This document shows, piece after piece, positions 21,001-36,000 of a DNA stretch of 64,000 bases. The first letter of the stretch is position 1, and the number at the start of each line of letters is the position of its first letter. The position numbers were made by a program. Source of the stretch: Escherichia coli (GTDB lineage: Bacteria > Pseudomonadota > Gammaproteobacteria > Enterobacterales > Enterobacteriaceae); assembly GCF_041248615.1 (NCBI RefSeq), contig NZ_CP158425.1; one strand, 5' to 3'.

Positions 21001-24000
21001 CTCGTTGTCAGGAACGTTGAAGGACCGAGAAAGGGTGACGATTGATCAGGACCGCTGCCGGAGCGCAACCCACTCACTACAGCAGAGCCATGTAGACAAC
21101 ATCCCCTCCCCCTTTCCACCGCGTCAGACGCCCGTAGCAGCCCGCTACGGGCTTTTTCATGCCCTGCCCTAGCGTCCAAGCCTCACGGCCGCGCTCGGCC
21201 TCTCTGGCGGCCTTCTGGCGCTCCTGCTGCGGCGTCCGCTCGTGGGCCGTGGCGCGGGTCCGCGCGCCGGCCTCGTGCGCCTGGCGCTCGCGGGCGAGGT
21301 CCAGGGCGCGGAAGTCGGACAGGCCGAACGGGGCCAGTTGCAGGTAGGTGCGCAGTTCCTGGGCATGCTCGCGACGGGTCACGTCGCGCTCGCCGTACTT
21401 TGCCCAGCTCGCCGGCTCGGCCTGGACTTGCTTCGCCACCCACAGGATGACCGGCTCGGGCAGCTCGCTGTCGGTTCCCAGCGCGTAACCGGGGTAGCGC
21501 AGCAGGCAGAGCTGCACGGCGAAGCCGAGGCGGTTGGCGTCGCCGCGTCGCTGGCGGATCAGCGACAGGTCGGAGTCGTTGAAGGTGTAGTAGCGGATCA
21601 GGTCATCCTGGCTTTCCGGCAGCGCAAGCAGGGTGTCCCGCTCCGTGGCCGAGAGGATCAAGCGACGCGGCATGTGTCAGTCGTCCGTGCGGAGGTACTG
21701 GTAGAGGGTTTCCCGGCTGATGTTGAACTCGCGGGCAAGCTGCGCCTTGGGCTCGCCGGCCGTCGCTCGCTGCCGCAGGGTAGCAGCCTGCTCATCGGAC
21801 AGGGCTTTCTTGCGGCCCCGGTACGCGCCACGCTGCTTGGCCAAGGCGATGCCCTCACGCTGCCGCTCGCGGATCAGGGCGCGCTCGAACTCAGCGAAGG
21901 CCCCCATCACCGACAGCATCAGGTTGGCCATCGGCGAGTCCTCGCCAGTGAACACCAGGCCCTCCTTCAGGAACTCGATGCGCACGCCGCGCTGAGTCAG
22001 CTTCTGTACCAAGCGACGCAGGTCATCGAGGTTGCGGGCCAGCCGATCCATGCTGTGCACCACCACTGTATCGCCTTCGCGGACGAAGCTCAGCAGCGCT
22101 TCGAGCTGGGGGCGCTGGGTGTCCTTGCCCGATGCCTTGTCGGTGAACACCTTGCTCACCTGGGTTTGTTCCAGCTGGCGTTCCGGGTTCTGGTCAAAGC
22201 TGCTGACCCGGACGTAGCCGATGCGGTGCCCCTGCACGATGTCTCCTTGGTTGAAGGCGGCTTAAGTGCACTTTCTGTTCCGTTGTGCCTCAAAGCCCAT
22301 TTCTGTCAGGCTGAAATCTATAACCTTCGCGGGCATGTGTCAAAAAATGGGAAAGCAGACTCTATTCTGACGAAGCGGCGCGGCCCTGCCTGACATCAAG
22401 TTAGGGTATGCCTCAACCTGACGGCGGCGAATCACAAGCGTCCGGTTTGACGCTGGTTTCGGTCGCAGTGCTGGCCCGCGCCTGGAAGCGCTGATAGCAC
22501 TCCAGCCCGCAGAAATGCTCCACGTACTCGGCCCCTTCCGGCGTGAAGGCGGCATCGAGCGGGATTTCCTTGCAGCACACGCAGCAACTGGTGCTCGGTT
22601 CATTGGCGTTCATGGTGGTGTTCCTCCATTGGTTGACGAAGCCGACGAAGGCCGCCGCCGGCATCGGCCTGGCGAACAGGAAACCCTGCACCGTGTCGCA
22701 ACCCGCCTGCCGCAACCACGCAAGGCAGTCGGGTGTTTCCACACCCTCGGCTACCACCTCCATTGTCGTTTTCAGAAGACGGCTGCACTGAACGTCAGAA
22801 GCCGACTGCACTATAGCAGCGGAGGGGTTGGATCCATCAGGCAACGACGGGCTGCTGCCGGCCATCAGCGGACGCAGGGAGGACTTTCCGCAACCGGCCG
22901 TTCGATGCGGCACCGATGGCCTTCGCGCAGGGGTAGTGAATCCGCCAGGATTGACTTGCGCTGCCCTACCTCTCACTAGTGAGGGGCGGCAGCGCATCAA
23001 GCGGTGAGCGCACTCCGGCACCGCCAACTTTCAGCACATGCGTGTAAATCATCGTCGTAGAGACGTCGGAATGGCCGAGCAGATCCTGCACGGTTCGAAT
23101 GTCGTAACCGCTGCGGAGCAAGGCCGTCGCGAACGAGTGGCGGAGGGTGTGCGGTGTGGCGGGCTTCGTGATGCCTGCTTGTTCTACGGCACGTTTGAAG
23201 GCGCGCTGAAAGGTCTGGTCATACATGTGATGGCGACGCACGACACCGCTCCGTGGATCGGTCGAATGCGTGTGCTGCGCAAAAACCCAGAACCACGGCC
23301 AGGAATGCCCGGCGCGCGGATACTTCCGCTCAAGGGCGTCGGGAAGCGCAACGCCGCTGCGGCCCTCGGCCTGGTCCTTCAGCCACCATGCCCGTGCACG
23401 CGACAGCTGCTCGCGCAGGCTGGGTGCCAAGCTCTCGGGTAACATCAAGGCCCGATCCTTGGAGCCCTTGCCCTCCCGCACGATGATCGTGCCGTGATCG
23501 AAATCCAGATCCTTGACCCGCAGTTGCAAACCCTCACTGATCCGCATGCCCGTTCCATACAGAAGCTGGGCGAACAAACGATGCTCGCCTTCCAGAAAAC
23601 CGAGGATGCGAACCACTTCATCCGGGGTCAGCACCACCGGCAAGCGCCGCGACGGCCGAGGTCTTCCGATCTCCTGAAGCCAGGGCAGATCCGTGCACAG
23701 CACCTTGCCGTAGAAGAACAGCAAGGCCGCCAATGCCTGACGATGCGTGGAGACCGAAACCTTGCGCTCGTTCGCCAGCCAGGACAGAAATGCCTCGACT
23801 TCGCTGCTGCCCAAGGTTGCCGGGTGACGCACACCGTGGAAACGGATGAAGGCACGAACCCAGTGGACATAAGCCTGTTCGGTTCGTAAACTGTAATGCA
23901 AGTAGCGTATGCGCTCACGCAACTGGTCCAGAACCTTGACCGAACGCAGCGGTGGTAACGGCGCAGTGGCGGTTTTCATGGCTTGTTATGACTGTTTTTT

Positions 24001-33000: not shown

Positions 33001-36000
33001 ACCATACTCTTTTATTTTCGCTATTAGGTATCATAGATATTCTCCTTTAGGCTATTATAGAAAGATTATTATAAGCGAAATTAATACCGTTAAACGCCAT
33101 GAGCCCGACAATTTTGAGCACTTTGTTTTGTACTCCCAGAAGCTCACCACTACAAATTATCATCAACCCGGTCCTTTTTTCAGTCCACTTGCGGTTTCAT
33201 TGTTACTTTGTCATAGCGTCGTGTCAGAATGCGGCAGAGAACAGCGTTTACTATCAACGCAACACCAGACCAGAAAAACCATGTATTAACACCTATAACC
33301 TCAACAACCGGACCTGCAACAAGTAAGCCTATCGGCATAGAAAGAGTCATGGCGGTCATCAAAAGGGAAAACACCTTGCCCATCATTTCAGGGGCAATGC
33401 TTTCTTGAACATAAGCCATAACAGGAACATTCATAAATGGGCACTGTTGCAAAGTTAGCGATGAGGCAGCCTTTTGTCTTATTCAAAGGCCTTACATTTC
33501 AAAAACTCTGCTTACCAGGCGCATTTCGCCCAGGGGATCACCATAATAAAATGCTGAGGCCTGGCCTTTGCGTAGTGCACGCATCACCTCAATACCTTTG
33601 ATGGTGGCGTAAGCCGTCTTCATGGATTTAAATCCCAGCGTGGCGCCGATTATCCGTTTCAGTTTGCCATGATCGCATTCAATCACGTTGTTCCGGTACT
33701 TAATCTGTCGGTGTTCAACGTCAGACGGGCACCGGCCTTCGCGTTTGAGCAGAGCAAGCGCGCGACCATAGGCGGGCGCTTTATCCGTGTTGATGAATCG
33801 CGGGATCTGCCACTTCTTCACGTTGTTGAGGATTTTACCCAGAAACCGGTATGCAGCTTTGCTGTTACGACGGGAGGAGAGATAAAAATCGACAGTGCGG
33901 CCCCGGCTGTCGACGGCCCGGTACAGATACGCCCAGCGGCCATTGACCTTCACGTAGGTTTCATCCATGTGCCACGGGCAAAGATCGGAAGGGTTACGCC
34001 AGTACCAGCGCAGCCGTTTTTCCATTTCAGGCGCATAACGCTGAACCCAGCGGTAAATCGTGGAGTGATCGACATTCACTCCGCGTTCAGCCAGCATCTC
34101 CTGCAGCTCACGGTAACTGATGCCGTATTTGCAGTACCAGCGTACGGCCCACAGAATGATGTCACGCTGAAAATGCCGGCCTTTGAATGGGTTCATGTGC
34201 AGCTCCATCAGCAAAAGGGGATGATAAGTTTATCACCACCGACTATTTGCAACAGTGCCCCTGCGGGTTCTGACTGGAAAGGGCGCTCAGATCGACACCA
34301 CGACTGCGTCCGGTCGCATGGTGTTCGGAATCTTCGCCACCTTGGCCGAGTTCGAGCGGGATCTGATCCGAGAGCGCACCATGGCGGGTCTCGCCTCCGC
34401 GAGAGCGCGCGGTCGCAAGGGCGGACGAAAATTCGCGCTCACCAAAGCTCAGGTGCGTCTCGCGCAAGCCGCCATGGCCCAGCGCGATACTTCAGTTTCC
34501 GATCTCTGCAAGGAACTCGGCATCGAGCGCGTCACTCTCTACCGATATGTCGGTCCCAAAGGCGAGCTCAGAGACCATGGAAAGCATGTTCTCGGACTTA
34601 CGTAGTGGACTTGCCTCGGTTTCGTTCCGGTCTTTTTGAGAGCATTATTTGTTATCAAGGAGACCATATATGTCATTAAAGCATAGTGATGAATTTAAGC
34701 GTGATGCAGTTCGCATAGCACTCACTAGTGGCTTAACACGCCGTCAAGTTGCGTCAGATTTAAGTATTGGGCTTTCCACGCTTGGGAAATGGATCGCATC
34801 AATTTCCGATGAAACTAAAATTCCTACCCAAGACACTGATCTTCTGCGTGAGAATGAACGTTTACGCAAAGAGAACCGTATCCTTCGGGAGGAGAGGGAG
34901 ATATTAAAAAAGGCAGCAATATTTTTCGCAGTACAAAAGCTGTGAGATTTCAGTTTATTACGGATTACCGTGGCTCTCTCTCACGTTCACGCATATGTCG
35001 TTTGATGGGCGTAACAGATCGTGGTTTACGTGCATGGAAACGCCGTCCTCCATCACTGCGCCAGCGTCGTGATCTTATACTTCTAGCGCATATACGTGAG
35101 CAGCATCGGTTGTGTTTGGGGAGCTATGGTAGGCCGCGTATGACAGAAGAGTTGAAAGCGCTGGGCCTGCAGGTTGGGCAGCGTCGGGTTGGACGTTTGA
35201 TGCGCCAGAATAACATTACAGTTGTTCGAACGCGTAAATTCAAACGGACAACGGATAGTCATCATACCTTCAACATTGCACCGAACCTATTAAAACAAGA
35301 CTTTAGCGCAAGCGCACCCAACCAGAAATGGGCAGGCGATATCACTTATGTTTGGACCAGAGAAGGATGGGTCTATCTTGCTGTTATCCTTGACCTGTAT
35401 TCCCGTCGCGTGATTGGCTGGGCAACAGGTGATCGATTAAAGCAGGATCTTGCATTAAGGGCACTGAATATGGCGTTGGCTTTACGCAAACCACCACCGG
35501 GTTGTATTCAACACACAGACCGTGGGAGCCAATATTGCGCTCATGAATATCAAAAGCTACTGCTCAAACATCAATTGCTGCCGTCCATGAGCGGGAAAGG
35601 CAATTGTTTTGATAACTCCGCAGTAGAAAGCTTCTTTAAATCATTAAAGGCTGAGTTGATTTGGCGCAGACACTGGCAAACAAGGCGAGATATTGAGATT
35701 GCAATCTTCGAATATATAAATGGCTTTTATAATCCACGCCGAAGACATTCAACACTCGGCTGGAAATCGCCGGTGGCATTTGAGAAAAAAGCCGCTTAAA
35801 ATGAGAGATAGACCGGAACACAACCGGTGCAAGTCCATAGCAACTCGTTTCTTTTCGCAGGTTGAGCCACCTCCGCGCTTCATCAGAAAACTGAAGGAAC
35901 CTCCATTGAATCGAACTAATATTTTTTTTGGTGAATCGCATTCTGACTGGTTGCCTGTCAGAGGCGGAGAATCTGGTGATTTTGTTTTTCGACGTGGTGA

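Follow-up and report, generated by a model that had tools for sequence, protein, structure and literature searches.

Two questions are raised by a class 1 integron of the sul3 type found in a 64,000-nucleotide stretch of Escherichia coli DNA (assembly GCF_041248615.1, contig NZ_CP158425.1), the whole of which is called here the window: whether the arrangement of this integron is particular to the plasmid that carries it, and from which organism its sulfonamide resistance gene, sul3, was recruited. As to the first, it is practically certain that positions 22763-33439 hold a standard sul3-type class 1 integron, already known and very common. As to the second, the evidence favours, with moderate confidence, a capture of sul3, in this and hence in every sul3 integron, from the chromosomal metG-folP-porin locus of a restricted group of uncultured Bacteroidales with low guanine-cytosine (GC) content, and not from Leptospiraceae. 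The capture would have proceeded by one-ended transposition of the IS91 type, and the FolP proteins of the donor clade would be intrinsically insensitive to sulfonamides. As of 2023, neither the direct ancestor of a sul gene nor the mechanism of its capture had been identified (PMC10328974). Concerning a Bacteroidales origin of sul3, nothing was found in the literature searched, which mostly did not cover subscription journals and is thus weak evidence of absence.

Identity and Prevalence of the Integron

From left to right, the integron consists of the terminal inverted repeat IRi, the integrase gene intI1, the PcH1 variant of the Pc promoter, attI1, the cassettes estX, psp, aadA2, cmlA1, aadA1, and qacH (named qacL by NCBI), an IS256-family remnant, sul3, an SDR oxidoreductase gene, and the 3′ end of mef(B), which abuts IS26 (Table 1). 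Gene identities were assigned by NCBIfam and Pfam profile scans, together with AMRFinder calls and annotation on identical records. The original prediction, made from the sequence alone, had listed these elements in the same order, and all of them were recovered by profile scans, annotation, and direct reading; absent from it was the opposite orientation of sul3, the SDR gene, and mef(B), which together with a GrpB-family fragment lie on the minus strand, against the cassettes. It had placed the whole at 22763-33439. The right limit is exact, as IS26 starts at 33440, but the left one is off by one base, since IRi begins at 22764 and 22763 is the last base of the preceding TCCAT.

The class 1 character is given by intI1, by attI1 with Pc, by cassettes ending in attC sites, and by IRi. 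The sul3 type is given by qacH as the last cassette, followed by the remnant known as IS440 and sul3, and then by the SDR gene (orf1) and 260 bp of mef(B) at IS26. The 3′-conserved segment qacEdelta1-sul1, which marks the classical sul1-type integron, is missing: search sequences for the 5′ ends of both genes had no match across the window, and neither qacEdelta1 nor sul1 is among the antimicrobial resistance annotations of the identical record NZ_LT599829.1. Sequence, annotation, and literature therefore all sustain the earlier description of a sul3-type integron devoid of this segment. A pattern search of the window for IRi and for the opposite repeat IRt matched only IRi, and the annotation of window 10001-64000 lists no tni gene. 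The element thus has neither the IRt nor the tni module by which a Tn402-type transposon is recognized.

Over its full length of 10,677 bp, the integron is 100% identical to many plasmid records, so that chance is no issue for this interval. Window 10000-34500 has a 100% match in plasmid p14408_M1 of E. coli NRZ14408 (NZ_LT599829.1, IncHI2A), a human isolate in which the integron lies on an IncHI2 plasmid; window position 10000 is position 106000 of that record, and the whole window is its stretch 96001-160000. At least 80% of the integron is carried at one place by at least 414 plasmid records and by 155 of 5,426 complete E. coli genomes, and the unaltered array is known from hundreds of plasmids of both livestock and human origin.

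Two platforms are standard for sul3, and one of them has the order intI1-estX-psp-aadA2-cmlA1-aadA1-qacH-IS440-sul3, accompanied by PcH1 (PMC4129628; PMC6206278); the reports of Antunes 2007, Saenz 2010, and Curiao 2011 belong to the sul3 integron literature as it is cited in PMC4129628. The sul3 integrons of pP136-2, pCVM19633_110, and pTB-nb4 share PcH1 and the cassette order and agree base for base over 10,677 bp; against pP136-2, a constant offset with 0 mismatches was found. No difference exists inside the integron, and the differences lie at its edges. pP136-2 retains the full 1,230-bp mef(B), whereas the window has only 260 bp of it, and in pCVM19633_110 and pTB-nb4 the place that tnpR-res-tnpM takes in the window is occupied by IS26, about 290 bp upstream of IRi. 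The mefB-260/IS26 junction of the window likewise recurs in this known type. The prediction that this arrangement was familiar from animal-associated Enterobacteriaceae agrees with the published arrays, and the two checks that it proposed, alignment to reference sul3 integrons and location of attC sites, of which six were found, brought no discrepancy to light.

In2 of Tn21 is the classical sul1-type relative, with qacEdelta1-sul1-orf5, IS1326/IS1353, tni remnants, and IRt at its distal end. The window shares with it IRi, intI1, and attI1, a cassette with aadA1, and the position of insertion, in tnpM beside TCCAT. Unlike In2, it has the sul3 segment and IS26 in place of the entire distal end and lacks IRt.

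Origin of sul3

The piece that carries sul3 (30347-31539) has the appearance of an excerpt from a chromosome. Its parts are the initial two codons of metG, a presumed native promoter region, a folP gene, that is sul3, and the last ~93 codons of a gene for an outer-membrane beta-barrel. A protein search for relatives of Sul3 returned sequences with 90% (P0002) and 86% amino acid identity (P0003, on an 806-kb contig) and many with 64-81%. In the 806-kb contig (locus L006), folP lies between a divergent metG and a convergent gene for an OMP_b-brl_2 protein of 217 amino acids, followed by genes for FKBP, LUD, CDP-alcohol phosphatidyltransferase, and phosphatidylserine decarboxylase and by cdsA, ftsH, and rsfS, which is a housekeeping neighbourhood. 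The same gene order is present in L007 (FolP 90% identical to Sul3), L034 (~80%), and L036 (74%). In a more distant metagenome-assembled genome (MAG) of Prevotellaceae (69%), folP is still beside metG and the order is rearranged.

The mobile piece and the chromosomal locus can be aligned from end to end. Window 31539 to 30347 is colinear with L006 7880-9070, with 83.2% identity over 1,194 bp. The 120-bp upstream region is the most similar part, with 95% nucleotide identity to L006 and 93% to L007; the coding sequence has 82% and 84%, and the beta-barrel stub 83% and 78%, the stub being 90-91% identical in amino acids to the C-terminus of the L006 protein. Beyond both boundaries, the identity of the window falls to 27-39%, whereas L006 and L007 remain 77-84% identical to each other. 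One boundary is formed by the first two metG codons (TTTCAT), and the other coincides with the point where a 5′-truncated IS256-family sequence begins. Metagenomes were also scanned for the start of metG joined to the promoter, a combination exclusive to the native form, and this retrieved two further loci with the same boundaries (L039 and L040), whose FolP is 92.4% identical to Sul3 in amino acids. The best match so far reaches 92% identity in amino acids and 84% in nucleotides, and the donor species itself is unsampled.

Between L006, L007, and L039, the MetG proteins share 98-99% identity, whereas the FolPs share only 85-87%; the 120 bp upstream of folP are 92-95% identical among L006, L007, and L039/L040. 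These values indicate that L006, L007, and L039 form a tight group, with a folP coding sequence that varies more than is usual in a housekeeping gene. The MetG of L006 has its highest identities with Paludibacteraceae MAGs (89%) and then with Bacteroides (85-86%), so that the group can be assigned to Bacteroidales. A scan of GTDB species representatives with the 86% homologue gave no named close chromosome; its best hit of chromosomal appearance was L015, which is treated below. The GC content of sul3 (~36%) falls within that of the Bacteroidales loci (35-37%). The truncation of the neighbouring genes, which is confined to the mobile copy, the synteny across lineages, and the matching GC contents argue together for a transfer from the chromosome to the mobile element.

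The sequence DPGMGFFLGSNPE is common to Sul3 and all these Bacteroidales FolPs, and the FolPs of the clade carry the Sul-type stretch DPGMGFFLG. Because of this stretch, the native enzymes are predicted to be intrinsically insensitive to sulfonamides. A parallel is offered by sul2 with its glmM′ (PMC6335563), which is likewise a sulfonamide-insensitive folP accompanied by a truncated chromosomal neighbour; sul3 has metG′ and the beta-barrel stub in this position, and the donor clades differ, being Rhodobiaceae for sul2 and probably Bacteroidales for sul3.

A Putative IS91-Family Capture Element

At its metG end, the sul3 piece adjoins a terminus of ~295 bp that belongs to an IS91-family element. 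The identification comes from L015, a contig end of a MAG labelled Desulfobacterales, where the same terminus follows the stop codon of an intact IS91-family transposase of 430 amino acids with Zn_Tnp_IS91 and Y2_Tnp domains (element at L015 3342-4914). In complete form and with 99.7-99.8% identity, the element still circulates in about 20 plasmids, whose hosts are Pseudomonas, E. coli, Enterobacter, Salmonella, and Providencia. Its terminus is also present directly upstream of armA in pKP048 (L033 4001-4243), and we take the element to be ISEc28, which has the corresponding position in Tn1548, the name being provisional.

L015 was considered as a donor chromosome and was discarded, as folP lies there at a contig end with an IntI-like recombinase and the IS91-family element. 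Its folP allele is 89% identical to Sul3 in amino acids; the homology to the chromosomal locus reaches 100 bp beyond the start of metG and, at the other end, breaks off within the beta-barrel gene at its joint with that IS terminus. Because allele, boundaries, and side of the insertion sequence (IS) all differ, L015 is an independent, second mobile capture of folP, and its taxonomic label is uninformative.

Elements of the ISCR/IS91 family are established agents of gene capture. The terminus described here is conserved next to three cargoes, sul3, the folP variant of L015, and armA, and one terminus joined to three cargoes is the pattern expected of IS91/ISCR-type capture. This suggests the same mechanism for sul3, although the element is here reduced to its 295-bp tip. 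The likeness to ISCR and IS91-family capture is thus that sul3 adjoins an IS91-family terminus; the differences are that another IS91-family element is involved and that only 295 bp of it remain.

Victivallales was also tried as the donor and rejected. A protein 81% identical to Sul3 (P0121; L008-L012) is widespread, 933 blocks of the collection being listed for it, and one of its carriers is the chromosome of Victivallales bacterium CCUG 44730. Its context, there and in contigs of gut metagenomes, consists of transposases, relaxase/MobC, and tet(M)-like genes, which identifies a mobile variant and not the source; aminoglycoside-resistance genes are also present on P0121 contigs, and one MAG annotation names the protein "Sul3". 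It appears that with P0121 a third member of this folP clade has been mobilised.

Two other accounts of the origin have to be weighed against a capture from Bacteroidales. The published view holds that sul3 was mobilised from folP of Leptospiraceae, a family favoured by a Bayesian tree of FolP and Sul sequences and by GC content; in the same study, the nucleotide identity was only ~50%, and a search with the surroundings of sul3 "did not return consistent results" (PMC6335563). The uncultured Bacteroidales FolPs, with 86-92% identity in amino acids and 82-84% in nucleotides, both flanking stubs and the promoter colinear, and synteny in at least four lineages, make a source in Leptospiraceae very unlikely. 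The transfer may also be imagined in reverse, the Bacteroidales loci having acquired the gene from a mobile sul3, and sul3-like genes are indeed mobile in gut communities, as seen from P0121 on contigs that resemble conjugative elements and from L015 beside its IS91-family transposase. This is just as improbable, since metG and the beta-barrel gene are both complete in the chromosomes and truncated in the mobile copy, no IS sequence flanks folP in L006, L007, L034, or L036, and the order metG-folP-OMP-FKBP-LUD-CDP-OH transferase is maintained across lineages with FolP identities of 74-92%; the agreement in GC content points the same way. A capture of sul3 from the Bacteroidales chromosome remains the preferred explanation.

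Table 1: Features of the integron and of its surroundings (positions in the window; IR, inverted repeat; ORF, open reading frame; z, z score of the folded attC bottom strand).
Feature	Position	Strand	Details
Tn1721-ended resistance unit containing the integron, 37,071 bp	15856-52926		38-bp IRs 15856-15893 and 52889-52926, inverted; TTAAA 5-bp duplication on both sides
Carrier backbone: Tn1721-type tnpA′ (5′ portion only), tnpR (21677-22237), hybrid res, Tn21-type tnpM remnant up to IRi	21301-22763	-	
IRi, 25-bp inverted repeat, TGTCGTTTTCAGAAGACGGCTGCAC	22764-22788	+	Read directly; exact IRi sequence
intI1, intact, 337 amino acids	22966-23979	-	NCBIfam NF011946, 799.5 bits, residues 1-337/337; WP_000845048.1
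Pc promoter, PcH1 variant, TGGACA-17 bp-TAAACT	23864-23892	+	Hexamers 23864-23869 and 23887-23892; within intI1
attI1 (approximate extent)	24052-24121	+	GCCCTAAAACAAAG followed by TTGTACG; crossover between G24115 and T24116
estX cassette	24116-25067	+	Gene 24146-24988; attC 25003-25073, z = -2.6; NF033124 macrolide esterase EstX, 660 bits
psp cassette	25068-25740	+	HAD-IB hydrolase gene 25084-25692; attC 25687-25746, z = -4.9; TIGR01490, Pfam HAD
aadA2 cassette	25741-26596	+	Gene 25750-26541; attC 26543-26602; AMRFinder 100% on identical record; AadA family match
cmlA1 cassette	26597-28145	+	GTG start 26803, end 28062; attC 28082-28151, z = -5.2; NF000509 CmlA, 949 bits
aadA1 cassette	28146-29001	+	Gene 28155-28946; attC 28948-29007; NF033126 AadA1, 597.6 bits, above cut-off
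qacH cassette (NCBI name qacL)	29002-29512	+	Gene 29116-29448; attC 29459-29518, z = -5.3; NF000067 QacL, 227 bits
IS256-family ("IS440") remnant	29513-30346	-	ORF 29695-30381, both profile ends missing; NF033543 positions 31-244/338, Pfam Transposase_mut 72-283/379
Outer-membrane beta-barrel gene, 3′ stub, last ~93 codons	30347-30627	+	Convergent with sul3; annotated "hypothetical protein"
sul3	30628-31419	-	NF000296 Sul3, 613.6 bits, residues 1-263/263; AMRFinder 100%
Native sul3 upstream region, presumed promoter, up to first two codons of divergent metG (TTTCAT)	31420-31539	-	Homology to L006/L007
IS91-family element terminus, ~295 bp	31540-31834		98.6% identical to L015 3342-3636; ~13-15 bp of transposase 3′ end left
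GrpB-family N-terminal fragment	31888-32133	-	Pfam GrpB positions 1-59/159
SDR oxidoreductase gene ("orf1"/"orfA" in the literature)	32171-33034	-	NF006114, 464 bits
mef(B) 3′ fragment, 260 bp (mefB-delta-260)	33180-33439	-	Stop as in full pP136-2 gene; 5′ part removed by IS26
IS26, 820 bp	33440-34259	-	Intact 14-bp IRs; only IS26 in window

The Distal Segment and IS26

The so-called sul3 conserved segment is a mosaic of at least five pieces. Between about 30400 and 33440, its GC content is 35-45%, as compared to ~60% in the 5′-conserved segment of the integron. The mosaic stands in the place that qacEdelta1-sul1 takes in classical integrons, and sul3, which keeps its own upstream region, would provide the sulfonamide resistance.

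The first piece is the IS256-family transposase, rightly regarded as a remnant in the original prediction: its profile matches are partial, and only 1,109 bp separate the qacH attC from the sul3 stop codon. The 182 bp that follow this attC (29513-29694) are perhaps transposase sequence in a shifted frame, perhaps a fragment of their own. The junction between the remnant and the folP fragment lies at ~30347. An ORF of 91 codons (30350-30625, plus strand) with a weak match to the C-terminus of the Pfam OMP_b-brl_2 profile abuts the sul3 stop codon.

Past the IS91-family terminus, the segment continues with the GrpB fragment, the SDR gene, and mef(B). The closest relatives of the SDR protein have 90% amino acid identity and are encoded on large contigs, and the nearest named organisms are Brevibacillus, Aneurinibacillus, and Paenibacillus (Bacillales). 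The SDR gene was tried as a tracer for the source of the whole GrpB′-SDR-mef(B) block and did not serve: in the best contig (L038), the homology amounts to 87% and is limited to the gene (32173-33056), with different neighbours. On these grounds, the block has a source other than that of sul3.

At the right end, mef(B) stops at the same position as the full gene of pP136-2, which bears out the earlier reading of a 3′ fragment abutting IS26. IS26 has no 8-bp target duplication, its flanks being CATAAATG and CCTGCGGG, and this fits an IS26-mediated deletion or recombination and not a simple insertion. The exact junction of the 260-bp mef(B) with IS26 is found in at least 606 plasmid records, and mefB-delta-260 has been described as the "globally dominant" IS26 truncation, in a report in which sul3 integrons are described as Tn21-borne (PMC9319951). 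To the right of IS26 (33440-34700), the sequence leads to IS1133, strA-strB, and then aph(3′)-Ia.

Integron Platform and Cassette Array

IRi is directly preceded by TCCAT (22759-22763), which corresponds to the In2-type insertion site in tnpM of Tn21; the same tnpM insertion site has been described in PMC7355605. The second copy of TCCAT is absent because IRt is absent. The Pc variants are defined in PMC4129628, where PcH1 accompanies the same array. A second promoter, P2, has TTGTTA at 23983-23988 and TACAGT at 24003-24008, and its 14-bp spacing is that of the inactive form. As a weak-to-intermediate promoter, PcH1 would transcribe the six-cassette array with an expression that falls with distance, as expected from knowledge of the family. 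By analogy with other class 1 integrons, IntI1 would act on the attC bottom strands in their folded form, and their recombination would allow cassettes to be excised or to be inserted at attI1.

Cassette boundaries were derived from the attC sites located in this analysis, as database annotations gave none. The bottom strand of every one of the six attC sites folds into an imperfect, bulged hairpin, with z scores of about -2.5 to -5.3. Every cassette begins with bases complementary to its own R″ core, as in TTGTACG/GTACAAC for estX, where the complement begins with the first cassette bases after the attI1 crossover, TTAGCG/CGCTAAC for psp, and TTGGGC/GCCCAAC for cmlA1; the start of aadA1 has one mismatch, which is a known exception. 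The qacH attC ends in G/TTAGTC at 29512/29513, and this GTTAGTC junction has been noted in PMC7355605.

The cassettes would provide several resistance functions: an esterase for 16-membered macrolides from estX, streptomycin/spectinomycin resistance from aadA2 and aadA1, efflux of chloramphenicol from cmlA1, and efflux of quaternary ammonium compounds from qacH/qacL. EstX is reported as a biochemically confirmed esterase for 16-membered macrolides (PMC11214618). In the cmlA1 cassette, a leader ORF of nine codons (MSTSKNADK, 26675-26704) precedes stem-loops in which, according to the RNA fold, the ribosome binding site of cmlA1 is enclosed, and the gene would, like others of its family, be additionally subject to translation attenuation at this leader.

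Two side observations concern estX. In the RGI track of PLSDB, window 24011-24988 (attI1-estX) is labelled AAC(6′)-Ib7 or AAC(3)-Ib at 100%. Since the ORF scores as EstX with 660 bits, this label looks like a database artefact and could mislead counts of resistance genes. The integron also joins two macrolide determinants, estX for the 16-membered, veterinary macrolides and the efflux gene mef(B), of which only a remnant is left here, and their pairing fits selection in livestock.

Carrier Transposon and Mobility

The integron lies within a resistance unit bounded by Tn1721 ends, and this placement, already proposed in the original prediction, is borne out by the inverted 38-bp repeats and the TTAAA duplication. 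From the inverted repeats and the perfect duplication it follows that the 37,071-bp region was inserted into the IncHI2 backbone as a single transposon with Tn1721 ends. According to annotation, tetR(A), tet(A), pecM, and the IRRII end of Tn1721 lie upstream of the carrier backbone, and a truncated mcp lies at the other end. Between tetR(A) and the truncated tnpA lie 263 bp (21046-21308) with matches to DNA that is annotated elsewhere as "transposase" or "relaxase".

The carrier itself is of hybrid composition. Its tnpA′-tnpR part (~21301-22413) is 99.9% identical to sequence of the TnAs1/Tn1721 type, whereas a wholly Tn21-type segment matches the carrier at only ~84%. Window 22390-22763 is 99.5% identical to H49 (NZ_CP058712.1), where it is unannotated, and from established knowledge of Tn21 we take it to be tnpM of the Tn21 type. 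A Tn1721-type tnpR beside a Tn21-type tnpM places the hybrid join in or near res. At least 30 plasmids, which come from Klebsiella, E. coli, and Salmonella, carry the whole succession tnpA′-tnpR-res-tnpM-IRi-intI1-estX with 100% identity along its 3.1 kb.

A close counterpart is pTZ41_1P_HI2 (PMC7355605), which is likewise an IncHI2 plasmid with a hybrid Tn1721/Tn21 element, IRRII and IRL ends with a duplication, a hybrid res, and a sul3 integron at the In2 site. Its array is dfrA12-orfF-aadA2-cmlA1-aadA1-qacH with a full mef(B), and it lies in tnsA of a Tn7-like element. The window differs from it in starting with estX-psp, in having 260 bp of mef(B), and in the location of the unit in the IncHI2 backbone.

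Having neither IRt nor tni, the integron would be unable to transpose by itself as a Tn402-type unit. From what is known of these families, it would travel passively, with the 37-kb Tn1721-ended unit, through IS26-mediated events, or with the conjugative IncHI2 plasmid. No intact Tn1721 tnpA is present in the unit, which has a 198-codon 5′ portion beside tnpR (21077-21673) and a truncated copy at the IRRII end, so that a transposase in trans would be needed for its movement.

Two further readings of the structure concern the way in which it was assembled. It may be asked whether sul3 is itself a gene cassette, or whether its segment was taken up whole by IntI1 at both ends, and the left junction does fall exactly on the attC core of qacH. 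This is extremely unlikely, because sul3 reads against the cassettes, has no attC, and is flanked by two stubs of chromosomal neighbour genes, the IS256-family remnant, and the IS91-family terminus, while the right end of the segment is IS26; IntI1 can therefore account for at most one junction. Still closer to exclusion is the idea that the arrangement is specific to this plasmid, as the product of a local insertion into the Tn1721-ended unit and of a local truncation by IS26. Both features, which the original prediction had singled out as specific, are truly present, and the lack of a target duplication at IS26 is compatible with a deletion or recombination event. Their specificity did not hold: besides the widespread mef(B)/IS26 junction, the left junction of the Tn1721 repeat with the IncHI2 backbone at the TTAAA site is shared by 616 plasmid records, the identical tnpR-res-tnpM-IRi-estX join spans three genera, and seven records hold at least 80% of window 10000-34500 in one place. 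The records that share the junctions differ in hosts, countries, and replicons and are not copies of one deposit. A standard, widely distributed integron in an equally distributed setting is thus the reading retained.

Significance

The significance of the integron itself is epidemiological only: it is another copy of a globally spread, livestock-associated multiresistance array, with a range that covers macrolides, aminoglycosides, chloramphenicol, quaternary ammonium compounds, and sulfonamides. The donor-gene stubs on sul3 and the matching Bacteroidales loci turn the question of its origin into a concrete search for one species. If the proposed origin is true, the native folP of this Bacteroidales clade should confer sulfonamide resistance.

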